From: an uncultured Syntrophaceae bacterium
GTDB taxonomy: Bacteria > Desulfobacterota > Syntrophia > Syntrophales > Fen-1087
NCBI GenBank assembly: GCA_964460245.1
Contig: CAYWTL010000001.1
Span: 56-64,055, forward strand
DNA length: 64,000 nucleotides
Direction of reading: 5' to 3'
Shown: positions 31,341-51,068 of the stretch, piece after piece
Layout: the number at the start of each line of letters is the position of its first letter
Numbering within the stretch: position 1 is the stretch's first letter
Position numbers and translations under genes: made by a program
The notes under the pieces: generated by a model
Databases searched by the model: none
What the model was told of the DNA's origin: nothing
The model's input: only the letters and a program-made list of their open reading frames with translations

Positions 31341-31786
31341 TGTCGTCCTCCATCCGTCACATTCTCCGCTCCCTTTTCAGGATTTCAACCCGGTCGCCGG
31401 ACTTCGAGGACAAGCGGCCGCATCGCTCTTTCGACCGGGTTTTCCGTGCAAGAGGTTACTGTATAGGAAGCTTTGCCTGCCGCGTCAAGCAAAAGCAACG
31501 GCCGCCACGGGCTTTCCCTTCGGGCGACGTTACATTTTTGTAACGTTTTTCCTTGACTTTTCCGCGATGAAACGCAACGATCTGCCAACCGAAAATCGCG
31601 TCGGACACGGGCAAATCCTATACGGGAGAGCGGGATTTGCCTTTTCGTTGCGGCGGGAGCGGATGCCGCGGGAAGGCTCGCCCGGGCCCGGTTTCCGGGT
31701 CCATGAATCCCGGTCCCGGCATCCTTTCCGGTCGTTCTTCCCGAACGCGGAAACCCGCCGACGGCCCGTCGCAAAACGGAAGGGAA

Positions 31787-33910
31787 ATGGAAAAAACAAC
31801 GGATTTCACGAAGCGCGTCTGGTGCGGGTCTCTTCGTTCCGGGGATGCGGGCAGAGAGGTGCTGCTGGCCGGGTGGGTCGATACCCTGCGGGATCACGGC
31901 GAGGTGCTGTTCGTTCACCTGCGGGACCGGAGCGGCATCGTTCAGATCGTCTTCAGCCCCGAACGCAGCTCGCCGGAGCTGTGCCGGACCGCCGACTCGC
32001 TGAAGAGCGAATACTGCCTCGCGGTGCGGGGCCGGGTGGAACGGCGCCTGGCCGGCACGGAGAACCCCTATCTCGAAACGGGGACCGTCGAGGTCTTTGC
32101 CGCGGAAATGGAGCTCCTGAACGCGGCGGACCCGCTGCCGTTCACGGTTTCCGAAAAGGCCGCGGCGACCGGCGAGCGGGAGGCGGAGGCCGTCGCCGAG
32201 GACCTGCGGCTCAGGCACCGCTATCTCGACCTGCGGCGCCCCTCCATGCAGGACAATCTTTTCCGGAGGCACCGCATCTTCAAGTGCGTCCGCGATTACC
32301 TGGATGAGCAGGGCTTCCTGGAGGTCGAAACGCCGATGCTCACGAAGAGCACGCCCGAGGGGGCGCGCGATTACCTGGTGCCCAGCCGGATCCACCAGGG
32401 CAGCTTCTACGCCTTGCCCCAGTCTCCCCAGCTCTTCAAACAGCTCCTGATGGTCGGCGGCTTCGAGCGCTACTTCCAGCTGGCCCGCTGCTTTCGGGAC
32501 GAGGACCTGCGGCCCAACCGCCAGCCGGAATTCACCCAGCTCGACATCGAGGCCTCCTTCATCGACGAGGAGTTCATCTACGGTCTCGTGGAGGAGCTGA
32601 CGGTCCGCATGTTCGCCGTCGGCGGGATTGCCCTGCCCAGGCCCTTCCCCCGCATGACCTATCAGGAAGCCATGGAGTCGATGGGTTCGGACCGTCCCGA
32701 CACCCGCTTCGGGCTCCGGTTCATCGAGGCCACGGATCTGTTCCGGGACACCCGGTACGGCATCTTCCGGCAGATTCTCGACCGGGGGGGGCGGATCAAG
32801 GGGATCAACATCCAGGGCCACTCGGCGAGCCTCAGCAAGAACGTCCTGCAGAACGAGTATGCCAAGGAAATCGTCCCCGCCATGGGCGCCAAGGGGATGA
32901 CCTGGATGCGGGTCCTCGACGGGAAGCTGGAGTCCAACATCGTCCAGTTCTTCAGCCGCGGGGAGCAGGCGGCCATCCTCGAGCGGTTCGGCGCCGGAAA
33001 CGGCGACGTGCTGATCATGATCGCCGATGCGTCGCCGGATCTCGTCCACTCCGTCCTGGGACAGTTGCGCCTTCACCTGGCCGGGCGGCTCGGCATGATC
33101 CCGCCCGGGACCTTCGCGCCCCTCTGGGTGACCGATTTCCCGCTCTTCGAGCCGACGGACGAGGGCGTGACATCCAGCCATCACCCCTTCACGGCGCCCC
33201 ATCGGCCGGATTTCGATCCCGAGAATCGCGACGAGCTCCTGGGGCTCAAATCCAGGGCTTACGACCTCGTCGTCAACGGGGAGGAACTCGGGGGCGGCAG
33301 CATCCGCATCCATGACCGCGTCCTGCAGTCCCGAATCTTCCAGGCCCTCGGTCTCTCCCGGGAGGCCGTGGAGGAAAAATTCGGTTTTTTCCTGCGCGCC
33401 CTCGACTACGGCACCCCGCCCCACGGCGGTCTCGCGCTGGGCATGGACCGTGTGGTCTCCATGGTTCTGTGCGCTTCGTCCATTCGGGAAGTGATCGCCT
33501 TTCCCAAGAACCGCAGCGCCCAGTGCCCCCTGACGCAGGCGCCGTCCGATGTCAGCCGCGAGCAACTGGGTGAACTCGGGCTTCTCGACCTCGGCGCCGA
33601 CAGGGAGCTCCCGGGAACGGCGCAAAAAGAGGACCTTCTGGATTACCTTTCCTGGGTATCAAGAATCGGAGTGACGGATTCCGAACGCCCCGCACTCGAG
33701 GAGGCCCTGGCGGAAGCCCTGGCCCTTGCCGCCGCGGTCGAGGTAAGGCAAACCGATGCGGAGCCCGCTTATTCCGTCGTGCCGGTGAAAGGCCGCGTTC
33801 GGCCGGGGGGGGAGCCCCGGGTGTCCCCGCACGCCGAATCGAGGGTCCTGTTTGAAAATGCGCCGGCCATGAAGGGTCGATACTTCAAGGTGGCCGGCAT
33901 TCTGGAATGA
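31787..33910 (+). CDS. aspS: Aspartate--tRNA ligase fused to a C-terminal GatC-like domain
   Basis: AspRS motifs: FVHLRDRSG, FRDEDLRPNRQPEFTQLDIE, GGGSIRIHD, AFPK. The normal C-terminus is followed by a ~110-aa extension ending in ...ENAPAMKGRYFKVAGILE, which is GatC-like. I chose the start at ATG 31787; the longest ORF begins at 31637. Confidence 0.85.
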   Translation: MEKTTDFTKRVWCGSLRSGDAGREVLLAGWVDTLRDHGEVLFVHLRDRSGIVQIVFSPERSSPELCRTADSLKSEYCLAVRGRVERRLAGTENPYLETGTVEVFAAEMELLNAADPLPFTVSEKAAATGEREAEAVAEDLRLRHRYLDLRRPSMQDNLFRRHRIFKCVRDYLDEQGFLEVETPMLTKSTPEGARDYLVPSRIHQGSFYALPQSPQLFKQLLMVGGFERYFQLARCFRDEDLRPNRQPEFTQLDIEASFIDEEFIYGLVEELTVRMFAVGGIALPRPFPRMTYQEAMESMGSDRPDTRFGLRFIEATDLFRDTRYGIFRQILDRGGRIKGINIQGHSASLSKNVLQNEYAKEIVPAMGAKGMTWMRVLDGKLESNIVQFFSRGEQAAILERFGAGNGDVLIMIADASPDLVHSVLGQLRLHLAGRLGMIPPGTFAPLWVTDFPLFEPTDEGVTSSHHPFTAPHRPDFDPENRDELLGLKSRAYDLVVNGEELGGGSIRIHDRVLQSRIFQALGLSREAVEEKFGFFLRALDYGTPPHGGLALGMDRVVSMVLCASSIREVIAFPKNRSAQCPLTQAPSDVSREQLGELGLLDLGADRELPGTAQKEDLLDYLSWVSRIGVTDSERPALEEALAEALALAAAVEVRQTDAEPAYSVVPVKGRVRPGGEPRVSPHAESRVLFENAPAMKGRYFKVAGILE

Positions 33911-33921
33911 GAAGGAGAGCG

Positions 33922-35118
33922 ATGGGATCGGGAGTCTTTGCCTATCGAGACGAGCTTTCGGAAGTCTCCGGGAACGGTCTTCTCAAGGGGAGGACCGTTT
34001 CCGTGCAGGCCAACATCTCCGTGGCGGGCTGGCCGACCGAGGCGGGCAGCCTCGCGCTGAAGGGCTTCAAGGCCATCGAGGATGCGACCGTCGTGAGGCG
34101 GATGCGGGACCAGGGAGCCCGGATCGTCGGCAGCACCCGGATGAGCGAACTGGGCCTGGGCCTGCAAGGCGCCGCGGCGGCGCGGGCCGTGGCCGAAGGG
34201 ATCGTGGAAATCGCCCTGGTGACGGAGCATGTCGGCGAGGCGCGGCTCGCGGCGGCCGGAGAGGGGCTCATCGGGTTCAAGCCGAGCTACGGCCTCGTGT
34301 CGCGGTACGGCCTGATCGGTCTCACGCCGTCCATGGAAACGATCGGCCTGCTGGCGCGCTCGCCGTCCGATGTCGCCGTCGTCCTGGCCGCCGTTGCCGG
34401 CAGGGACGAGCGGGATTTCTCCATGCCCGAGGAAGACGTTCCGGACTTTCTCGACGTTTCCTGCCGGCCGGGTATCCGCACCCTGGGATGGATTCATGAA
34501 AGCGCGGCCTGCCTCGAGGCCGACGAGCGGAAAGCCTTTCAGCGCCGCATGGAGGCCTTTGCGGAAGCCGGCTGCACCCTTGTCGAGATGAGCCTGCCGG
34601 ATTTCGCCCTCTTTCGGACCGCGCACCAGGTCATCGGTTCCGTCGAAGCCTCCTCCGCCGCCGGCAAGTACGACGGCGTGCGGTTCGGATACCGGACGCC
34701 GTCGGCGAAAAACTGGAACGAGATGTACCTGAAAACCAGGGGAGAGATCTTCGGCCCGGCCATCAAGACGTTCCTCTTCCAGGGGGCGTATTATCAGTTC
34801 GTGAAATACGGCGTGTTCGAAAAGGCGTGCCGCCTGCGGTCTCATCTGATGCGGGAGATGCAGCGCCTGCTCGGGACCGTGGACGCGCTGGCGATGCCCG
34901 CCGTCCGCGGGAACTTCGACCCCTTCGAGGCCGCGACGGTCCCCGCCCTCTACGATGCCGCCCTGTTCACCGTGCCCGCCAGCCTGACGGGCCTTCCCGC
35001 CCTGTCCCTTGCCGGCGGCCCAGCCTCTCCCGGGGTGCAGATCATCGGGCCGAGACGCGGCGATGCAACGCTGCTTGCCCTCGCGGCAAGGGTATCGAAA
35101 AAAACGAAGGAGTCCTGA
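33922..35118 (+). CDS. GatA-like amidase-fold subunit lacking the Ser-cisSer-Lys catalytic residues
   Basis: It aligns with GatA (GFKPSYGLVSRYGLI, SMETIGLLARS, EASSAAGKYDGVRFGY, PASLTGLPALSL). However KDN is QAN, GGSSGGS is LQGAAAA and DTGGSIR is TEHVGEAR. It has about 398 aa versus about 485. The ATG at 33922 has GAAGGAG 5 nt upstream. An alternative ATG at 33907 overlaps the aspS-gatC stop (ATGA). Confidence 0.75.
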   Translation: MGSGVFAYRDELSEVSGNGLLKGRTVSVQANISVAGWPTEAGSLALKGFKAIEDATVVRRMRDQGARIVGSTRMSELGLGLQGAAAARAVAEGIVEIALVTEHVGEARLAAAGEGLIGFKPSYGLVSRYGLIGLTPSMETIGLLARSPSDVAVVLAAVAGRDERDFSMPEEDVPDFLDVSCRPGIRTLGWIHESAACLEADERKAFQRRMEAFAEAGCTLVEMSLPDFALFRTAHQVIGSVEASSAAGKYDGVRFGYRTPSAKNWNEMYLKTRGEIFGPAIKTFLFQGAYYQFVKYGVFEKACRLRSHLMREMQRLLGTVDALAMPAVRGNFDPFEAATVPALYDAALFTVPASLTGLPALSLAGGPASPGVQIIGPRRGDATLLALAARVSKKTKES

Positions 35119-35120
35119 GC

Positions 35121-36548
35121 GTGCAGTACGAAGCGATCATCGGCCTCGAAATCCACGTGGAGCTCAACTGCCTGACGAAGATGTTCTGCGATTGCCCGAA
35201 TCGCCCGGGTGACGAGCCCAATCGGAATACCTGTCCCGTCTGCCTGTGGCTCCCGGGGGCCCTGCCCCGCTTCAGCCGGGAAGCCCTCGAGAAGGCGGCG
35301 CTGGCATGCCTCGCGCTGAACTGCGAAATCCAGGAGCGCAGCGCCTTCGACCAGAAGGTCTACTACTATCCGGACCTGCCGAAGGGTTATCAGCTCTCCC
35401 AGGCCCACTTTCCGCTGGCCCGCGGGGGATGGCTCGACATCGCGGACGAATCGGGCGCCCCGAAGCGGCTCCGCATTCGACACATCCACATGGAGGAAGA
35501 CGTGGCCAAGCTCGTCCACGAGCTCGAGGGCCGGATCCCCGTGAGTCTGGTCGATTTCAACCGGGCCGGGGCGCCCCTCGTGGAGATCGTGACGGAACCC
35601 GACATCCGCTCCCCCCACGAAGCCATGGAATTCATCCGGAACCTTCGGACCCAGATCCGCTACGTGGGAAGCTCCGAGTGCAGCATGGAGACCGGCACGA
35701 TGCGCGTGGACGCCAACATCTCCATCCGCGAGCAGGGAACGAGCGCCCTGAACACCAAGGTGGAAGTCAAAAACATGAATTCCGTCCGGCACCTGGGCGA
35801 CGCGATCGCCTACGAGATCGAACGGCAGATGGCTTCCCTGAAGGCGGGGGAGGCCATTGTCCTGCACACCCGGCTCTGGGACCCGGAAAAGGGCGCGACC
35901 CTGCCGATGCGGGGCAAATTCGAGGGTCCCTGCGTGCCCGATCCGTCCGTCCCCGAGATCGTCGTCTCCGAGGAGTGGATCGGCCGGATGCGCGGGTCGC
36001 TGCCCGAAATGCCGGCGGTGAAGACGTCCCGCTTTCAGAGCGATTACGGGCTGCCGAGGGACCTGGCGTCCTCGCTGGCAGGAGACCGGGAATTGTCCGA
36101 CTATTTCGAGGCCGTCACCCGGAAATCCATCTCGCCGCGCATGGCCGCCCACTGGCTCATGACGCAGTATCTGCCGGCGCTGCGGGAGAGGCAGCTTTCG
36201 ATCTTCGGAAACCCCGTGACCCCCGACCGGTTCGCCGACGTCCTGCAGCGGCTCGAAAAGGACGAGATCAACGCCAATGCGGCCAGGGAAGTCCTTTCGC
36301 GGCTGTTCGCGAGCGACGAAACGCCCGATGCCATCATCGAGCAGGGTGGGTTCCGGCAGGTCTCCGACGCCGCATCCCTGGAAACCCTGGTCGAGCAGGT
36401 GCTCGGCTCCCACCCGGCAGCGGTCAGCGACTACAAGTCCGGACAGGGAAAGGCTCTGGGCTTTCTGATCGGGCAGGTGATGCAGGCCTCGTCCGGCAAG
36501 GCCAACCCCAAGCGCGTCCGGGAAATCCTGATGTCGAAGCTGACGTAA
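35121..36548 (+). CDS. gatB: Asp/Glu-tRNA amidotransferase subunit B
   Basis: The GTG start has AAGGAG 8 nt upstream. The sequence YEAIIGLEIHVEL...YYYPDLPKGYQ.SQ...HMEEDVAKL...DFNRAG.PL.EIV is canonical GatB. The longer ORF from 34827 overlaps the gatA-like gene and was rejected. Confidence 0.9.
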   Translation: MQYEAIIGLEIHVELNCLTKMFCDCPNRPGDEPNRNTCPVCLWLPGALPRFSREALEKAALACLALNCEIQERSAFDQKVYYYPDLPKGYQLSQAHFPLARGGWLDIADESGAPKRLRIRHIHMEEDVAKLVHELEGRIPVSLVDFNRAGAPLVEIVTEPDIRSPHEAMEFIRNLRTQIRYVGSSECSMETGTMRVDANISIREQGTSALNTKVEVKNMNSVRHLGDAIAYEIERQMASLKAGEAIVLHTRLWDPEKGATLPMRGKFEGPCVPDPSVPEIVVSEEWIGRMRGSLPEMPAVKTSRFQSDYGLPRDLASSLAGDRELSDYFEAVTRKSISPRMAAHWLMTQYLPALRERQLSIFGNPVTPDRFADVLQRLEKDEINANAAREVLSRLFASDETPDAIIEQGGFRQVSDAASLETLVEQVLGSHPAAVSDYKSGQGKALGFLIGQVMQASSGKANPKRVREILMSKLT

Positions 36549-36683
36549 GCCGCGGAAGGCAGGCGGTTCGATCGGCCGGTTTGCCGATGTCAAAACAAAT
36601 GTAAATAAATACTTTAAGTATGACTTGTAAATGCCCGTTTTTGATAATTTTAATTCTTTGCCATTTCAGAATCGCCCTACGTT

Positions 36684-37364
36684 TCAGCGGCTGCTTTGAC
36701 CCGGCGTTTCCCTCCTGAACAGGCGGTCGCCTGAGGGAGTTCCGGCTGTGTGTCTGCGGATGAGGCCGATGATCCGTCTGAGCTTCTCAGGATCTTTCTT
36801 CCCAGGGGACGCTTCCGCGCCGCTGTTGATGTCCACGGCACGAGGCGCCACCCGCGTCAGCGCCTTTTCGATGTTTGCCTCGTTGAGGCCCCCGGCCAGG
36901 ATCAGGGGATGCCGGCGGGCGATCCGGGCGGCGAGGTCCCAGTCGGCTTCCTTCCCCGTTCCGCCCCGGCGCCCTTTATCGGCGGCATCGAGAAGGAATG
37001 CCCCGACGGGATAATCCCGCAGGCGAAAGGCGACATCTTCGGGACGGCCGGAAAGGGCCTTGATCAGGACGCTCTGTGGGAAGCGGCGGCAGTATTCCGT
37101 TGTTTCATCGCCGTGGAGCTGGATCCGGTCCAGGCCGCAGGCCTTCTGAATTGCAAGCACCGTTTCCGGCGCCTCGTTCACGAAAACACCGATCCGGGCG
37201 ACACGGTCCGGCAGAGCGGCAACGATGCGGGCCGCCGCTTCGGGAGTCACGCGGCGAGGGCTTCCGGCGTAGAAGATGAAGCCCAGGGCATCGGCTCCGC
37301 AGGCGGCGGCGTGAAGGGCGTCCGCGACATTCGTGATGCCGCAGATCTTGATCTCCGTCAGCAT
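36684..37364 (-). CDS. trpF: Phosphoribosylanthranilate isomerase
   Basis: The sequence is KICGIT....A......GADALGFIF...SPR. It is the last gene of the trp block, and its start overlaps the trpC stop by 7 nt. Confidence 0.9.
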   Translation of the reverse strand: MLTEIKICGITNVADALHAAACGADALGFIFYAGSPRRVTPEAAARIVAALPDRVARIGVFVNEAPETVLAIQKACGLDRIQLHGDETTEYCRRFPQSVLIKALSGRPEDVAFRLRDYPVGAFLLDAADKGRRGGTGKEADWDLAARIARRHPLILAGGLNEANIEKALTRVAPRAVDINSGAEASPGKKDPEKLRRIIGLIRRHTAGTPSGDRLFRRETPGQSSR

Positions 37365-39730: not shown

Positions 39731-39734
<4 letters not shown>

Positions 39735-41236
39735 GTCTCCTTCTCCTTTGTATTGAGATTGAATCCGGCCTCCGCGAGCCGGATGGCCTGCATCATCGCC
39801 GCCGCCTTGTTCAGGCACTCCCGGTGCTCCGCCTCGGGGCTGGAATCGGCCACAATGCCCGCGCCCACCTGGAGCGAAGCCTTCCCGTCATGAACGAGGA
39901 TCGTGCGGATGGTGATGCAGAAATCCATATTGCCCGAAAAGCTGAAATAGCCGACGGCGCCCCCGTAAGGCCCGCGACGCGACGGTTCCAGTTCCTCGAT
40001 GATCTCCATGGCCCGGACCTTGGGGGCGCCCGTCAGGGTTCCGGCCGGGAAGGTCGCCCGCAGCACGTCGAAAGCGTCGTTCCCCTGCGCAAGCTGCGCC
40101 TGGATGTGGGAAACGAGATGCATGACGTGGGAATACCGCTCCACCGCCATGAGCTGGTTGACCTGGACGCTTCCGATGCGGGCGATCCGGCCGAGGTCGT
40201 TTCGCCCCAGATCGACCAGCATGACGTGCTCCGCCCGCTCCTTCGGATCCGCCAGCAGCTCGTCGGCCAGACGCCGGTCTTCCTGTTCGGTCGCGCCGCG
40301 CCTGCGCGTGCCCGCGATGGGCTTCAGTTCCACCACGCCCTCCTCCAGCCGGACCATGACTTCCGGCGACGAGCCGATGAGCGCCGTCCCGCCGGTCTTC
40401 AGAAAAAAGAGATAGGGCGAGGGGTTCGTGTAGCGGAGCGCCCGGTAGAGGTCGACGGGATCGATGCCGCACCGTCCGGTAAAGCGCTGGGAGAGGACGA
40501 CCTGGATGATGTCGCCGGCGGCAATGTACTCCCGCGCCCGGTCGACCATGAGCTTGAAGCCGTCCGGGGTCATGTCGGGCCGCAGCTCCGTTTTGGCTGC
40601 CGCTTCGACGGGATTTGCGAAGGGGCGTTCCGGGGCGCGGAGCAGGGCGACCGTGCTCTCGATCCGGCTGGCGGCGCTTTCGTACAATGCCCGAAGATCG
40701 TCGCCGTCGTTGACCGTGACGCAGGCCACGACCTTGATGGTGTGGCGGACGTTGTCGAAGACGACCAGCGTGCCGGTGACGAGGAACACCGCATCGGGAA
40801 CGCCGGCATCCGCGGGGTGGCGGCTGGGCAGCCTCTCGAAATGGCGGACCATGTCGTAGCCGAGGAAGCCGACGGCGCCGCCGAAGAAGCGCGGCAGCCC
40901 CGGCAGCGGCACCGGGCGATCGCCGTCCAGAATGTTTTTGAGATGCTGAAGCGGATTGCCTCCGTGTGGAAAGGCGCGCGCTTCTCCATCCTTCTCGAGG
41001 ATGACCTCGTCCCCCCGGACGGTGAAGATCAGTTGCGGATCGGCCCCGAGGAAGGTGTAGCGACCCCACTTTTCGCCCCCTTCCACGCTCTCCAGCAGAA
41101 AGACATGGGACCGGGCGCTCATTTTCATGAGGGCCGAAACGGGCGTTTCCGCGTCCGCAAGGATTTCCCGGTAGACGGGGATCAGGTTCCCCGCGCCGGA
41201 CATCCCGGCAAACGTTTCGAAATCCGGTTCGTACAT
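39731..41236 (-). CDS. trpE: Anthranilate synthase component I
   Basis: The sequence is [16 protein letters not shown]...[17 protein letters not shown]...RG.YGGAVGY. I chose the start at ATG 41236, downstream of the terminators. Confidence 0.9.
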
Positions 41237-41263
41237 GGCGATGTTCTCTCTTTTCTTCCCAAT

Positions 41264-41290
41264 AAAAAAAGCCGTGATTCGGGTCACGGC
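41264..41290 (-). terminator. Intrinsic terminator/attenuator hairpin 2 upstream of trpE
   Basis: The minus strand reads GCCGTGA-CCCGAA-TCACGGC followed by TTTTTTT. It lies 28 nt upstream of the trpE ATG. Confidence 0.7.
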
Positions 41291-41315
41291 CTTTCCGGGG
41301 TGAATGATTACCAGC

Positions 41316-41351
41316 AAAAAAGCCGTGGAGATCGAGTGGTCTCTCCACGGC
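41316..41351 (-). terminator. Intrinsic terminator-like hairpin 1 of the trp leader
   Basis: The minus strand reads GCCGTGGAGA-GACCACTCGA-TCTCCACGGC followed by TTTTTTG. Its 3' arm (CACGGC) can also pair with the 5' arm (GCCGTG) of hairpin 2. Confidence 0.65.
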
Positions 41352-41379
41352 TTTCGGTTTTCTTATCGATGGCTAAACG

Positions 41380-41451
41380 TCAGCGGCGGATAAACCCCTC
41401 CTGTGCGTTGTGCCACCACCAGTTCATTGTCATTGCAGCGTTCCGGTTCAT
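41380..41451 (-). CDS. trp leader peptide with three consecutive Trp codons
   Basis: The minus-strand ORF ATG AAC CGG AAC GCT GCA ATG ACA ATG AAC TGG TGG TGG CAC AAC GCA CAG GAG GGG TTT ATC CGC CGC TGA encodes MNRNAAMTMNWWWHNAQEGFIRR. Internal ATGs lie at 41433 and 41427. The TGG TGG TGG run is at 41413-41421. It sits between tyrA and the two terminators. No strong SD is present. Confidence 0.65.
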   Translation of the reverse strand: MNRNAAMTMNWWWHNAQEGFIRR

Positions 41452-41530
41452 CTTCGTCTCTGACATTCCTTCGGCACGAGGCTTTTGCGGCCTCAATTGC
41501 CGTTTCGCATAACAGGCTTTTGCGGGCATG

Positions 41531-42361
41531 TCAATCGTTTATTTCGATGAGCTTTTTTCCCCGCGGCGGTTTTTTGTTATCCGGCCGCGGCCGTTCACGG
41601 GATGCGCAATCCACGATCCGCTTTCGAAGGGCCTCCGCATCGCCCCGGCCGACCAGTTCCTTCAGGTCCCGCAAGTTTTTCTCGAAGCGCCGGATCACCT
41701 CCGGGATGTCCGGGTTGCCCATGATGATGCCCGCGTAGAGCCCGGGGCTGCCGCCGAAGACCTTTTCGATCATCTTCAGCCGGGCCCGGAATGTCGGGGT
41801 GGAGAACTTTTCCAGCTCCTTCGGATCCATCCCGGTCTCGTGGAGCGTCAGTCCCATGACGACCGTGTCGAGATGGGTCAGTCCCTGGACGATGGCCATC
41901 ATCCGGTCGTGGCGCTCCGGCGTCGTCTCGATGACACGGGCCGAATGTTCCCGAAACAGCCCCGCGAGCCAATCCAGCCATTTCCGGCCCCGGCCCGGGC
42001 ACAGCACGATGTTCTGTCCGGCGATGGACAGCACATCCGGCCCGAAGAGCGGGTGGCAGCCAACGACCTCCGCCGTCGAAGCCTCCAGCATGGCCCGGAC
42101 CGGTTCCCTTTTCAGGGACGTCAGGTCCATGAGCAGGCCGTCGCCCCGGACATGGGGCCCCGCCTGCCGGATCACGTCCGGAGTGGCTGCGATCGGGACG
42201 CTCACGATCAGGATGTCGCTCTCCCGGGCCATGGCGGGCAGGTCCGGCGCCGACGCCCTTCCCGCCGTCCGGACCGGGAATCCCGCGACCCGGAAAAAAT
42301 CCGCGAACCAGCGGCCGATGCCGCCCGTGCCGCCCACGATGCCGATGCGAATCTTGCTCAT
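41531..42361 (-). CDS. tyrA: Prephenate dehydrogenase
   Basis: The sequence is [13 protein letters not shown]......G.......VGCHPLFGP...TPE.HD..MA.VQ.LTH. The ATG overlaps the aroC stop (ATGA). Confidence 0.8.
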
Positions 42362-43413
42362 GCGCCGATGGCCCTCTGTCTCAGCAGGTGGTCGGCCAGC
42401 ACGATGCCGACCATGGCCTCGCAGACCGGGAGAATGCGGGGGATGACGGACACGTCGTGCCGCCCCCGAATCGAGAGCGTGACCGGGGTTCCGGTTTCAT
42501 CGATCGTCTCCTGAGGTCTGGAAATGGACGGTATGGGTTTGCAGGCCACGCGCAGGACGATGTCGCTGCCGTTGGTGATCCCCGCCAGGATGCCGCCGGC
42601 ATGGTTCGTCCGGAAGCCGTCCGGCCCCAGGGCATCGTTGCACGCCGAGCCCGTCATCCGCGCCGCCGCGAAGCCCGCGCCCACCTCCACGCCCTTGACC
42701 GTTCCGATGCTCATCAGCACCTTGGCCAGGTCGGCGTCGATCTTGTCGAAGACCGGCGCACCCAAGCCGGCGGGGCACCCGCTGACGACGACCTCGACCA
42801 CGCCGCCCAGGGAATCGCCGCGTTTCCTCGCCCGCTCGATCCTCCGTTCCATCTTCCCGGCGGCCTCGGCATCCGGGCAGCGCAGCGGATTGCTCTCCAT
42901 CTCCGCCGGCGAAAACTTCCGGGCGGCAATGCCCCCCAGCTCCTTCGTGTAGGCGACCATCCGGATGTTCTCCCGCCCCAGGATTTTTTTCGCGATGGCG
43001 CCCGCGGCCACGCGGCCCGCCGTTTCCCGGCCGGAGGCCCGTCCGCCGCCCCGGTGATCGCGAATGCCGTATTTGCGCTGATAGGTGAAGTCCCCGTGCC
43101 CCGGCCGGAAGACCGAACGAAGATCCTCGTAATCGTCGCCGCGGACGTCCCGGTTCCGGATGATGAGGGAGATGGGGGTCCCCGTGGTTTTCCCCTCGAA
43201 TACGCCGGACAGGATCTCCACCCGGTCCGCCTCCCGGCGGGCGGTCGACGTGGAAACCGCCTGCGGCCTCCGCCGGTCCAGCTCCCGCTGAATATCCGTC
43301 TCGCTCAGGGGGATGCGCGGGGGGCACCCGCCCACCACCGCGCCGATGGCCGGTCCGTGGGATTCCCCCCACGTGGTGACCCGAAAGAGTGTTCCGATGG
43401 AATTGCCTGACAT
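42358..43413 (-). CDS. aroC: Chorismate synthase
   Basis: The sequence is [35 protein letters not shown] lies 7 nt upstream of the ATG at 43413. An alternative GTG at 43431 overlaps the aroK stop. Confidence 0.9.
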
Positions 43414-47787: not shown

Positions 47788-48878
47788 CCCCTCATCCCCT
47801 CGATCGTTTCCCGGATCAGCGGTTCGGGCACGCCCCCGTTCATGAAGGGCATCCCCGCCCGTTTGAGCAGAACGAAGTGAACCGCCGCGCCCTGCTTCTT
47901 CTTGTCCTTTTTCAGCCGGGTCAGGATCGCTCCCCCGTCCAGGCCTTGCGGGACACGGTCGGCAAGACCGAGTTTCCGAATGAGCGACAGGATCCGTTCA
48001 CCCTCTTCCTCCGGGAGATACTTCATCCGCACCGAAATGCGAACCGCGGCCGCCATGCCGATGGCGACGGCGTCCCCGTGCGACAGGCGGAACCCCGACT
48101 CGGCTTCAACGGCATGGCCGATGGTGTGGCCGAAGTTGAGAATCCGGCGGAGCCCCGTGTCCCTCTCATCCAGTTCGACGATCCCCTTCTTGATGCGGCA
48201 GCATTGCAGGACCAAGCCCTCCAGAAAGTCCGCATCGCGCCGCAGCAGCGCCTCCGCCTTCCCGTCGAGGAGGTCCAGAATCTCCGGAGATTCGATGACC
48301 CCGTACTTCACGATCTCGGCCAGGCCGTTTCGAATCTCCGCTTCCGGCAGCGTTTTGAGGAAGGAGACGTCCGAAAACACCGCCTTCGGCTGATGAAACG
48401 TTCCAATGTAGTTCTTTCCCGCCTCCGTGTCGACGCCGGTTTTGCCCCCGATGCTGCTGTCGACCTGGGCGAGCAGCGTCGTGGGAATCTGGATGCAGGG
48501 AATCCCCCGCATGAAGATCGAGGCGGCGAAGCCGGCGACGTCGCCCGTAACGCCCCCGCCCAGGGCGATCACGGCGGATGTCCGGTCCGCTCCCAGCCCG
48601 GCCATCTTTTCCAGGATTTCGAGGCAGGTCTGCACGTTCTTCGACGCCTCGCCTCCCGGAAATACGATCAGATCGGCCTTCAGATCCATCTGCCGGAGGA
48701 GTTTGAGGACCTCGCCCCCGTAGAGCGACGCCACGCGGGAGTCGGAGACGATCACGTACCGCGCTGCCCAGTTGTTCTTCGCCAAGAGCAGCCCGGCGCG
48801 GTCCAGAATGTCGCGGCCGACATGAATGTCATAGCTTCTCACCGTTTTCCGGTCCAGGTTCAGTCTGATTTTGTTCAT
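47784..48878 (-). CDS. aroB: 3-dehydroquinate synthase
   Basis: The sequence is GGE..K.......ALGGGV.GD..GF.A....RGI...[18 protein letters not shown]. The ATG at 48878 overlaps the DAHP synthase TGA (ATGA). Confidence 0.9.
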
Positions 48879-49903
48879 TGCAGCACCCTGATTTCCTCTC
48901 TCATGATTTTTTCCATGACCCGGACTTCCTCCATCATCTGGTAAAACTGCTCCGGCCGCAGCGACTGGGCGCCGTCCGAAAAGGCCTTCTCGGGCTCCGG
49001 GTGGACTTCTACGATCAGGCCGTCCGCCCCGACGGCGACGGCGGCGCGGGTCAGCGGAATCACGTACCGGGAGTATCCGGCGGCATGGCTGGGATCGATG
49101 ATGACCGGCAGATGGGTCAGCTCCTTCAAGACGGGAACGGCGCTGATGTCCAGGGTATTGCGCGTCGCCGTTTCGAAAGTCCGGATCCCCCGTTCGCAAA
49201 GGATGACCTGCTCATTCCCCGCCGACAGGATGTATTCCGCCGACATGAGCAGCTCCTCGATGGTGGTCATCAGGCCGCGCTTCAGCAACACCGGCTTTTT
49301 CGCGCGGCCCACCTCCTTCAGCAGGGCGAAGTTCTGCACATTCCGGGCGCCGATCTGCAGGATGTCCGCGTAGGACTCCACCAGATCCACATCCGTCGTG
49401 TTCATCACTTCCGTCACGACCGGGAGTCCCGTTCGCTCCCGGACCTTCTTCAGGAGTTTCAGGCCCTCTTCGGCCATGCCCTGAAAGCTGTACGGCGACG
49501 TCCGGGGCTTGAACGCCCCCCCGCGCAGGATATGGGCGCCGGCCTTCTTCGCGACATAGGCCGATGCCATGAGCTGTTCCTCGCTTTCCACGGAGCAGGG
49601 GCCGGCCATGACGATGAAATCCGGCCCACCGATGGCCAGGTCACCGACGCGGACGACGGTATTGCCCTCCCGCACCTCCCGGCTGGCCAGTTTGTAGGGT
49701 TTGAGGATCGGCATGACCTTGTCCACGCCGGGGAGGAATTCGGCGGACTTCAACTGGGCCTTCCCCCGGTCATCCCCCACGGCGCCGACGATGGTGCGCT
49801 CCACGCCGCGGGACAGGTGCGCGCTGTAACCGACGGATGCGATCCACTCCACGATCCGGTCGACCTGGGCATCCGTCGCATTTTTTTTCATAATGATGAT
49901 CAT
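48875..49903 (-). CDS. aroF: DAHP synthase (type I-beta, Thermotoga-like, with an N-terminal ferredoxin-like regulatory domain)
   Basis: The sequence is GPCSVES.EQ......[22 protein letters not shown]...IGARN.QNF.LL.....KPVLLKRG. The ATG at 49903 has GGAGGA 7 nt upstream. It is the first gene of the supraoperon. Confidence 0.9.
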
Positions 49904-49962
49904 ATCTGTTTCCTCCAAAAAGAAAGGGCCGTGGAAAATCGGCTCCCACAGCCCCGAAACGC

Positions 49963-50000
49963 AAAAAGCCATGGGTAGCGTTTTTCGATCTACCCATGGC
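49963..50000 (-). terminator. Intrinsic terminator/attenuator between the aromatic-rich leader ORF and aroF
   Basis: The minus strand reads GCCATGGGTAG-ATCGAAAAACG-CTACCCATGGC (11-bp perfect stem) followed by TTTTTG. It lies 23 nt after the leader stop and about 60 nt before the aroF ATG. Confidence 0.75.
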
Positions 50001-50023
50001 TCCGTTTGATGATTTAAATTTCT

Positions 50024-50125
50024 TTAAGTCCTCCTGAGCGTCGGGCAGACCGGTGCATAAAAATAGTAATAGCCGTACCAGCTCTTAAAATTTCTTCCGG
50101 TTTGACCGCTTTTGAAGCCCGACAT
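50024..50125 (-). CDS. Aromatic-residue-rich leader peptide (33 aa) upstream of the aro supraoperon
   Basis: My own translation of the minus strand gives MSGFKSGQTGRNFKSWYGYYYFYAPVCPTLRRT*. Seven of eight consecutive residues are W/Y/F (WYGYYYFY). GAGGAG lies 12 nt upstream of the ATG at 50125, and the TAA stop is at 50026-50024. The ORF is too short for the supplied ORF track. Confidence 0.65.
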   Translation of the reverse strand: MSGFKSGQTGRNFKSWYGYYYFYAPVCPTLRRT

Positions 50126-50246
50126 GCTGCTGCGAATCTCCTCACTTTTACTCTTTGCCCTGCAGGCAACCACAATCAGGGGGCCCTGTCAAGGAAAAAC
50201 TTCCTGAAATAATCTCCGTCACGCGGCGGCGGGGAACGGTCGCCGG

Positions 50247-51068
50247 CTACTTCACGGTGTATCCGCGCCCGTCGAGGCAGGCCCCCATGGCCCTCTGGTA
50301 CTCGACGCGCTTCTGGCCCGCCGGATCCGCCAGATCCCCCTCGCGGGGCCGGGTGGGGTCGTAGCCGGTCTGCTGGACGGCCCAGGCATGGCACTCGTAG
50401 CGGTCCTTCGCCAGCTGCTCTTCGCTCTGGCCCTGACGGGGGTAGACGAAAAGCTGATCGATGGATGCCTCGATTTCCGGAGGCAGCGTTTCACTGGCCT
50501 CGCCGCTCGGCGGCGCGACGACGGCGTAGCCGTTGGGCACGCGTGTATAATAAACCTCATTGGCGTAGTAGTAGGGGATCCCGCCGAACCAGACCGTCGC
50601 GTAATAGGGCGGTAGGTAGGGAACGACCACGCCGAAAGGGGGCGCGATGACGGCAAAGCGGGGCCCGTACGGACGGTACCAGACGCCCCCCCGGTAATAA
50701 TAGCGCGTCCCGCCGTGCACGATCACCCGGTGGTCGCGGGGAAGCCGCTGGATGTAGCGGCCGCGCACCGGATAGGAACGGTCATGGCGATAGCGCGAAT
50801 CCAGGTAAAGCCCCGGCCGAATCGGGCCCGGAGGCGGCGCCTTTAAATTCCGGGGAGGCGGCGCCTGGCTTCCCCGCGGCGCCATGCGCGGCCCGGGAGG
50901 CGGAACCGGGCGCGACGACGGTTCCCGGTACTGGCGGAACTGCTCGGAACGGGGCCCGCGTTCAGCCGCATTCGCCGTCTGTAAGAGCGGGTACAGCAGG
51001 ACCCCGGTCAGCAGGGCCGCCGCCATGCCGAGCGTAAATCTCACGTTTCTGCTAAATAAAAGTGACAT
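50247..51068 (-). CDS. Secreted Pro/Tyr-rich hypothetical protein with a conserved C-terminal Cys-containing domain
   Basis: The signal-peptide-like N-terminus is LGMAAALLTGVLLYPLLQTANA-AE. YYY/GxWY repeats are present. The C-terminal YPRQGQSEEQ..DRYECHAWAVQQTGYDP...YQRAMGACLDGRGYTV is shared with the next gene. Confidence 0.6.
   Translation of the reverse strand: MSLLFSRNVRFTLGMAAALLTGVLLYPLLQTANAAERGPRSEQFRQYREPSSRPVPPPGPRMAPRGSQAPPPRNLKAPPPGPIRPGLYLDSRYRHDRSYPVRGRYIQRLPRDHRVIVHGGTRYYYRGGVWYRPYGPRFAVIAPPFGVVVPYLPPYYATVWFGGIPYYYANEVYYTRVPNGYAVVAPPSGEASETLPPEIEASIDQLFVYPRQGQSEEQLAKDRYECHAWAVQQTGYDPTRPREGDLADPAGQKRVEYQRAMGACLDGRGYTVK

Follow-up and report, generated by a model that had tools for sequence, protein, structure and literature searches.

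A conserved trp attenuator with an internal promoter and tandem, possibly relay-coupled terminators between tyrA and trpE of a Syntrophaceae bacterium

The 64,000-nt stretch analysed here (the window; positions 56 to 64,055 of contig CAYWTL010000001.1 in assembly GCA_964460245.1, from an uncultured Syntrophaceae bacterium) carries, between tyrA and trpE, a short open reading frame (ORF) with three consecutive Trp codons and, behind it, two hairpins in tandem. The question raised by this locus is whether trpE and the genes that follow it have Trp-specific attenuation of their own inside a larger aromatic operon and, if so, whether it works as in Escherichia coli trpL. An earlier inspection of the letters alone (the sequence-only reading) proposed such nested control by a classical trp attenuator and suspected a mechanism unlike that of E. 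coli. All features described below lie on the minus strand unless stated otherwise, and all unprefixed coordinates are those of the window.

The element is a genuine conserved trp attenuator with an internal promoter, and its departure from the E. coli model lies in conserved tandem terminators, possibly coupled by a relay. The whole model, in which six pairing segments read by a translating ribosome would make the expression of trpEGDCF dependent on charged tRNA-Trp, is given a probability of about 0.75, and its core, ribosome-mediated attenuation by the classical mechanism, is very probable. Sequence and computation show the anatomy, how far it is conserved, and which alternative pairings can form with what energies; Trp dependence, kinetics, and the relay are deduced from these.

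According to the model, transcripts would start at the internal promoter or read through from the upstream aro genes, and both kinds would cross the 23-codon leader ORF. When Trp is plentiful, the ribosome would reach the UGA stop abutting segment 2 and mask this segment, whereupon the first terminator (H1, segments 3:4) would fold and terminate transcription at its U6 run; a polymerase escaping H1 would meet the second terminator (H2, segments 5:6, with U7), which gives another chance of termination. When Trp is scarce, the ribosome would stall on the Trp codons UGGUGGUGG, at least 12 nt upstream of segment 2, and the free segment 2 would pair with segment 3 once the latter is transcribed, blocking H1. 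The orphaned segment 4 would then pair with segment 5 and block H2 as well (the relay), so that trpE would be transcribed.

Leader ORF, antiterminator, and first terminator

A scan of the 450 nt 5′ of trpE in ~155 loci with sufficient flank places the element in a family of 13 leaders, consisting of the window, Syntrophales metagenome-assembled genomes (MAGs; L006-L010), and metagenome contigs (L086-L091 and L093). Exact matches to the TrpE protein of the window are confined to metagenome contigs, four of which carry an identical leader; the closest genomes by TrpE are Syntrophales/Syntrophaceae MAGs with 63-67% identity, and metagenome contigs reach up to 72%. Leader ORF and H1 with a run of 6-7 U are found in 13 of 13 members, and the promoter and H2 with its U-run in 12 of 13 each, both being missing from L091. 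Thus, the attenuator proposed from the letters, with its leader ORF, promoter, and terminators, recurs in related trpE loci (leader ORF and H1 in 12 of 12, promoter and H2 in 11 of 12 each). Absence of the leader ORF from related genomes had been named among the observations that would speak against it, and homologous leaders are present in 12 relatives.

The leader ORF (41380..41451) runs from the ATG at 41451 to the TGA at 41382-41380 and encodes 23 codons, MNRNAAMTMNWWWHNAQEGFIRR followed by the stop, with two more in-frame ATGs at 41433 and 41427. It lies 143 nt upstream of the trpE ATG. Its three tandem Trp codons (segment 1, UGGUGGUGG, 41421-41413) form the putative ribosome stall site; the WWW leader ORF is thus present as the sequence-only reading had described it. 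In the 12 related loci the Trp run is WWW or WWWW (WWCW in L086), and in the alignment of the family (A1) its first five bases (TGGTG) are invariant and the remainder nearly so. The homologous leader peptides follow the pattern N-WWW(W)-x-N-...-G-F-V-R-R before the stop, with the tail kept in 11 of 13 leaders; the MNR start is common to the window and L010.

The part of the ORF that matters most for the mechanism is its 3′ end. Segment 2 (GAGGGGUUUAUCCGCCGCU, 41400-41382) comprises the last 6-7 leader codons, ends on the U of UGA, and is the most conserved stretch of the leader. It begins 12 nt past the last Trp codon, and the leader stop abuts it. Its partner, segment 3 (AGCCGUGGAGAGACCACUC, 41352-41334), consists of the H1 5′ arm and the H1 loop, and in the window the two strands form 16 bp with an energy of −21.3 kcal/mol. 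In nascent-RNA folds of the 13 sequences, with the ribosome masked on the Trp codons and the transcript ended at the H1 loop, the 2:3 pairing appears in 13 of 13 as one extended helix of −14.7 to −25.1 kcal/mol, its consensus being the ORF tail GGAGGGGUUUGUCCRCCGCU with AGCCGUGGRGA and the H1 loop CCUCUUC. A shorter antiterminator, CCGCCGCU with AGCCGUGG (8 bp with a C·C mismatch), was considered and rejected as too short, the folded helix continuing into the H1 loop.

The strands of this helix also appear to have evolved together. When segments from the same genome (cognate) are compared with segments from different genomes (non-cognate) in a permutation test, cognate 2:3 duplexes have a mean energy of −21.2 versus −19.3 kcal/mol, a gain of 1.9 kcal/mol with p=0.0002, similar to that of helices 3:4 and 5:6 in the same test. 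RNAalifold on a MAFFT alignment of segments 2-3 recovers only 12 pairs, with the indels of the H1 loop misaligned. Re-alignment with a covariance model improved the 2:3 pairing: 88% of cells pair, versus 42-64% when the partner strand is slid, with classical covariation still weak.

A change in one relative bears on what is being conserved. In L009 (leader at L009:3736-3911) a 2-nt deletion just past WWW turns the peptide tail into HLKIEVRPPLQM and moves the stop 12 nt further downstream. The segment 2 RNA GUUCGUCCACCGCU and the RNA sequence GUCCACCGCU are nevertheless retained. The frameshift alters the peptide and yet spares the RNA of segment 2, so that L009 is a natural experiment in which constraint is seen to act on the RNA and not on the peptide.

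H1 itself (GAAAGCCGUGGAGA/UCUCCACGGCUUUU, 41316..41355) has its hairpin at 41355-41318 and U6 at 41321-41316. With a 14-bp stem and a 10-nt loop, it has an energy of −23.1 kcal/mol (z −6.5), and five of its base pairs are changed on both sides across the family. Since 2:3 is directed against this hairpin, H1 is the primary regulated terminator, as are segments 3:4 in E. coli, and the core mechanism is that of E. coli trpL. The pairing also explains the conserved H1 loop (CCUCUUC), the conserved peptide tail EGFVRR, and the RNA kept in L009. As for the mutually exclusive hairpins of the sequence-only reading, H1, H2, and their cross-pairing exist; the set was incomplete, however, with the pairing of the ORF 3′ end (GGAGGGGUUUAUCCGCCGCU) with the H1 5′ arm and loop overlooked. 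Its suspicion of a mechanism unlike that of E. coli does not hold for the 2:3/3:4 core and does hold for the second terminator. The U-run of H1 and the ~25 nt between H1 and the leader stop, from which that suspicion arose, fit an ordinary regulated terminator once 2:3 is taken into account.

Several results weigh against this account of the core. Column covariation of 2:3 is weak (double-sided changes in 2 pairs; the observed pairing is reached in 79 of 500 shuffles), which is attributable to segments too conserved for such a test; the window-only 2:3 fold has z −1.6 and, equalled by 15 of 200 shuffles, does not stand out from them, and the cognate/non-cognate difference could be inflated by correlated G+C content of segments 2 and 3. 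The leader ORF has a weak Shine-Dalgarno sequence. Regarding the 1:2 hairpin, the pairing of UGGUGGUGG with CCGCCGCU (41382-41389) reaches −14.8 kcal/mol in the isolated leader with z −0.8, no better than shuffles, and is much weaker than 2:3. Across the alignment this helix reaches 96.7% pairing in the consensus, with a double-sided change in a single pair, the cognate versus non-cognate comparison gives p=0.10, and it is the minimum-energy nascent fold only in L006, L008, and L086. Because 1:2 is so much weaker than 2:3, an untranslated leader might read through rather than super-attenuate as in E. coli. In sum, 2:3 as the antiterminator is well supported by conservation, geometry, and co-evolution and is not proven by classical covariation.

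Second terminator and its coupling to the first

H2 (GAAAGGCCGUGA/UCACGGCUUUUU, 41264..41295) has its hairpin at 41295-41266 and U7 at 41270-41264. Its 12-bp stem, which includes A:U and G:U pairs, closes a 6-nt loop, with an energy of −16.5 kcal/mol and z −4.5. Both hairpins claimed by the sequence-only reading, with U6 and U7, are thus borne out by their z values (−6.5 and −4.5 for H1 and H2, respectively). Across the family H2 has −16.0 to −19.9 kcal/mol and a run of ~6-7 U, shorter or interrupted in L007 and L008, and five of its pairs are changed on both sides (12 of 13 members have H2). The core of its stem, GGCCG(Y), is nearly invariant and its loop drifts across genomes whose TrpE is 62-72% identical to that of the window. 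For the complete terminated state (1:2 with H1 and H2), alignment A1 gives 95% paired and 11 pairs changed on both sides, a result matched by 0 of 500 shuffles. A consensus terminator scan with fixed rules found neither H1 nor H2: H1 was missed because its 10-nt loop exceeds the limit of the scan, and in H2 the stem presumably takes up the A/U tracts, so that the tail retains too few T.

The two terminators are complementary to each other. Segment 4, the H1 3′ arm with its U-run (CACGGCUUUUUUG, 41327-41315), can pair, when H1 is unformed, with segment 5, the A-run and H2 5′ arm (CGGAAAGGCCGUG, 41297-41285), its partner in the proposed relay. The window helix has 13 bp, −20.6 kcal/mol, and z −3.2, and the claim that the H1 3′ arm can pair with the H2 5′ arm is therefore upheld. 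In all 12 members with H2 the 4:5 helix forms, with −14.5 to −21.2 kcal/mol; its 11-bp consensus is kept in 12 of 12, and 10 of its 11 columns show no broken pair.

Tandem terminators with cross-complementary arms also occur in two other trpE leader families, NWCWW (L105, L112, and L114) and WWRW/WWCW (L107 and L152), where 4:5 has −19.6 to −25.2 kcal/mol. The stems of the WWRW/WWCW family differ (GGCCAUGG and GGCUAUGG), and the NWCWW family has a GCCGUGG motif in common with that of the window. When the 4:5 strands are permuted across families, none of the 6 possible assignments does better than the cognate one, which supports 4:5, three families being too few for significance. Pairing of the ORF tail with the 5′ arm of the first terminator is seen in all leaders checked (L105, L112, L114, L030, L107, L152, L015, and L126); in the NWCWW and WWRW/WWCW families it includes the loop, as in the window. 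A six-segment relay attenuator, recurring in three or more distinct trpE leader families of Thermodesulfobacteriota-like bacteria, is about as probable as its opposite; both terminators would be on with Trp, for a very low basal level, and off without it.

Among the other loci, NWCWW leaders are also found in L030, and further non-homologous Trp-codon leaders stand upstream of trpE in L015, L126, and L037. L015 and L126 apparently have one terminator each. Many stems among the Trp-codon leaders are of the GCC(G/A)UGG / CCA(C/U)GGC type, which echoes the complementarity of UGG and CCA.

In the strongest competing explanation, the attenuator has the classical four segments, with H1 under leader control as above, and H2 behind it is unregulated, acting as a leaky fail-safe or insulator. 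In that case H2 would lower basal read-through and, at this locus, also end aro-tyrA transcripts, and 4:5 would be a by-product of A/U tracts and G+C-rich stems. The following results favor it and speak against the relay. No covariation is found for 4:5 (p=0.30 for cognate versus non-cognate duplexes, and no double-sided change in the RNAalifold per-pair table), although these tests are uninformative because both strands are nearly invariant. In equilibrium folds of the full-length RNA, H2 outcompetes 4:5 throughout the family, even when 2:3 is imposed, so that a relay could work only kinetically. Some cross-pairing is in any case expected between terminators that both carry A- and U-tracts. 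H2 is dispensable in at least one lineage, given that L091 lacks it, and L015 has a single terminator.

Other observations do not fit an unregulated H2. It looks like a canonical strong terminator (−16 to −20 kcal/mol, ~6-7 U), and if it were never relieved, the operon would be throttled even in starvation. Hairpin formation alone should not constrain its core so tightly while the loop drifts. Moreover, 4:5 equals or exceeds H2 in stability (−20.6 versus −16.5 kcal/mol in the window), and the cross-complementary tandem design is repeated in two other families, in one of them with a different stem sequence. A constitutive H2 is thus possible but rather doubtful. As for the relay, in which 4:5 would compete with 5:6 so that both terminators are disabled together, the model leaves the chances evenly poised.

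Internal promoter, direct repeat, and leader peptide

The internal promoter consists of a −35 hexamer TTGACA (41529..41534), which overlaps the tyrA stop TGA (41531-41533), and an extended −10, TGT TATGCG (41506..41514), with TG at 41514-41513, TATGCG at 41511-41506, and a 17-nt spacer from the −35. The promoter that the sequence-only reading placed over the tyrA 3′ end, TTGACA-17-TATGCG, is indeed there, and the TG before the hexamer makes it an extended −10. A simple sigma-70 consensus scan did not list it because the hexamer TATGCG is weak. In 12 of 13 family members TTGAC[ACG]-N14-TGn-TAnnnn stands at an equal distance upstream of the leader, and the TG and TA of the extended −10 are invariant across these 12 promoters. 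The first Trp codon lies 113 nt from the −35 in the window versus 88-94 nt in 9 of the 11 promoter-bearing relatives, with L086 (66 nt) and L093 (133 nt) as outliers. Most of the extra ~23-25 nt relative to most relatives is accounted for by a stem-loop in the 5′ untranslated region, CGGCAAUUGAGGCCGCAAAAGCCUCGUGCCG (41472..41502; 31 nt, −16.1 kcal/mol, z −3.3).

The perfect 12-nt direct repeat CCGCAAAAGCCT was correctly located by the sequence-only reading. Copy 1 (41525-41514) falls within the promoter spacer, and copy 2 (41490-41479) covers the loop and 3′ side of the stem-loop. The repeat stands outside the conserved element: it is found in none of the 12 relatives, in which promoter and leader are otherwise kept. 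A second, less probable alternative makes these copies repressor operators or sites of an RNA-binding protein, which would tune the internal promoter independently of attenuation, in addition to it or in its place. The repeat is exact and unusual, as the 64-kb window has only 3 places with a local exact direct repeat of ≥12 nt, versus 0.3 expected in shuffles. Copy 1 lies between −35 and −10, a typical repressor position, and copy 2 ~15-25 nt past the likely start site; four further samples of this species have the same leader, both copies included.

The absence of the repeat from 12 of 12 relatives that keep promoter and leader nevertheless stands against protein control, and the window has exactly two exact copies. 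At ≤2 mismatches there are 14 in the window versus 7.7 ± 2.8 in shuffles, a marginal excess. In addition, copy 2 is inside the 31-nt hairpin to which this lineage owes most of its extra leader length, and the repeat may be an operator pair, a stem-loop that stabilises the 5′ end, or what is left of a local duplication or insertion. A regulatory role for it is accordingly ranked low, and protein control appears unlikely. As a regulon motif, CCGCAAAAGCCT is ruled out by the lack of further exact copies in the window and of any in the relatives. Two of the three local repeats are in this leader, the CCGCAAAAGCCT pair and CACGGCUUUUUU, which is common to the 3′ arms of H1 and H2. The third, GGAGGCGGCGCCT, occurs twice, 24 nt apart, at 50830-50866 inside a DUF6515 ORF (50247-51068).

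Two further explanations have very little left in their favor. In the layout implied by the sequence-only reading, H1 would serve as the 1:2 pause or anti-antiterminator, the helix between the H1 3′ arm and the H2 5′ arm as the antiterminator, and H2 as the sole regulated terminator; the three structures exist and are mutually exclusive, but the stop is ~25 nt upstream of H1, so that a stalled or terminating ribosome cannot touch it, the U6 run of H1 is kept in 13 of 13 members, so H1 is itself a terminator, and a conserved, co-evolving antiterminator against H1 exists further upstream, all of which makes this layout highly improbable. No better placed is the idea that the peptide N-WWW-x-N-...-G-F-V-R-R has a function of its own, be it ribosome arrest as with TnaC or action in trans as with Sinorhizobium peTrpL: the tail is kept in 11 of 13 leaders, and a trans-acting trp leader peptide and a leader-derived small RNA of Sinorhizobium are reported (PMC7298713 and PMC6614838), but L009 keeps the RNA with a frameshifted, unrelated C-terminus, and the conserved codons coincide exactly with the antiterminator strand, which is sufficient to explain their conservation.

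Gene context, known systems, and significance

The attenuator stands ahead of trpE (39731..41236; anthranilate synthase component I, Pfam Anth_synt_I_N and Chorismate_bind), the first regulated gene, which is followed by trpG, trpD, trpC, and trpF. On its other side is tyrA (41531..42361; prephenate dehydrogenase, Pfam PDH_N and PDH_C), the last gene of the upstream aro block, and no terminator is read in the sequence between tyrA and the leader. According to Pfam, all these genes are on one strand in the order aroG (DAHP synthase)-aroB-pheA-aroD-aroE-aroA-aroK-aroC-tyrA, leader, trpE-trpG-trpD-trpC-trpF, which agrees with the proposal that Trp control is nested in a larger supraoperon. Past the end of trpF at 36684, no trpB or trpA was found. 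The region behind trpF (33700-36690) has long minus-strand ORFs without a Pfam match, among them three overlapping long ORFs in ~1.5 kb at 35120-36680, none with a Pfam family; plus-strand aspS (31637-33910) and a GatA-like amidase gene (from 33907) converge on the operon end.

A second leader-peptide attenuator is seen at the head of the supraoperon (49963-50190), 5′ of aroG (ORF 48875-49972). It has TTGACA at ~50185-50190 and an ORF from the ATG at 50125 to the TAA at 50026-50024 (MSGFKSGQTGRNFKSWYGYYYFYAPVCPTLRRT before the stop) with the aromatic run W-Y-G-Y-Y-Y-F-Y. Its terminator, GCCAUGGGUAG/CUACCCAUGGC (49968-50000), ends in a U5 run, and the 3′ part of the ORF can form an antiterminator with the terminator 5′ arm and loop (−26.8 kcal/mol, z −4.1). 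The presence of this leader supports the idea of nested control, that is, two-tier attenuation with an aromatic-codon leader over the pathway trunk and a Trp leader over the Trp branch.

Among the relatives, same-strand aro genes are found 5′ of the leader in L088 (tyrA), in L093 and L091 (aroA-aroK-aroC), and in L086 (aroC). No aro gene is detected upstream of the leader in L006-L009, L087, L089, and L090, where the trp operon apparently stands alone, and the L010 contig is too short to show whether aro genes precede the leader. From this distribution, the leader is read as the ancestral head of the trp operon, which in some members of the clade, the window genome among them, later became enclosed in an aro-trp supraoperon.

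In L091 (L091:2161-2500) the TTGACA promoter is missing within 170 nt, H2 is replaced by a GUAGGGGCGAUUCAUGAAUCGCCCCUAC hairpin without a U-run, and there are ~200 extra nt ahead of trpE. With aroA-aroK-aroC directly upstream, its leader may be fed by read-through alone.

Regarding known systems, a cmscan search of 40500-42500 against Rfam (both strands, E up to 10) gave three chance matches and nothing else (two microRNA families and one ribozyme), and the leader has no match to Trp_leader (RF00513), T-box, or any other Rfam family. A T-box mechanism is thus ruled out by the lack of an Rfam match in the leader. TRAP-regulated trp leaders of Bacillus have 9-11 (G/U)AG triplets 2-3 nt apart that overlap the antiterminator; in the 298-nt leader of the window the longest chain of suitably spaced triplets is 1, which rules out a TRAP mechanism too.

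In comparison with E. coli trpL, the window leader likewise has a short ORF with tandem Trp codons, a stop from which a terminating ribosome would mask segment 2, pairings 2:3 and 3:4 that exclude each other, with 1:2 as a candidate third, and an intrinsic terminator before trpE. The E. coli trp antiterminator is somewhat less stable than the terminator, and the same holds slightly for the window (−21 versus −23 kcal/mol). The differences are that the window family has 3-4 Trp codons rather than two, segment 2 lies wholly within the ORF, the antiterminator reaches into the terminator loop, 1:2 is weak, and there is a second conserved terminator, H2, whose arms are complementary to those of H1; the host is a Syntrophales-like member of Thermodesulfobacteriota and not a gammaproteobacterium.

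The aromatic supraoperon of B. subtilis, aroFBH-trpEDCFBA-hisC-tyrA-aroE, has an internal trp leader under TRAP. As in the window, its trp genes are downstream of same-strand aro genes, an internal promoter and a Trp-specific leader precede trpE, and upstream read-through transcripts also come under Trp control. Unlike there, the sensor in the window would be a translating ribosome and not TRAP, the gene order differs, and the cluster has no aro genes after the trp genes and no trpB or trpA.

Tandem riboswitches and T-boxes make two serial termination decisions with a sensor of their own for each unit, which gives a sharper response or a lower basal level. In contrast, a single ribosome sensor would control both terminators of the window via 2:3 and then 4:5.

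Outside enterobacteria, a leader-peptide attenuator before trpE is known from the trpE(G) operon of Sinorhizobium meliloti (trpL, rnTrpL, and peTrpL; PMC6614838 and PMC7298713). The terminated leader RNA of the window would also become a small RNA. The window leader differs from that of S. meliloti in having tandem terminators and is not known to act in trans. In the literature, no match was found for a Syntrophales or deltaproteobacterial trp attenuator or for attenuators with tandem terminators, relay-coupled or otherwise, and PMC1262725 and PMC2700814 contain nothing on the subject; this is weak evidence given the incomplete coverage.

As for what the element means, ribosome-mediated attenuation would extend to Syntrophales and related Thermodesulfobacteriota, where it is apparently undescribed and without an Rfam model, and it implies tight transcription-translation coupling in slow-growing anaerobes. 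The 13-member family, whose alternative structures are well defined, could serve annotation as the seed of a new RNA family. If the relay is true, one sensor would govern two serial terminators by cascaded strand exchange, combining low leak with a high dynamic range, a design usable in synthetic RNA switches. Together with the aroG leader, the element would amount to hierarchical attenuation of a branched pathway, its trunk governed by an aromatic-codon leader and its branch by a Trp leader.

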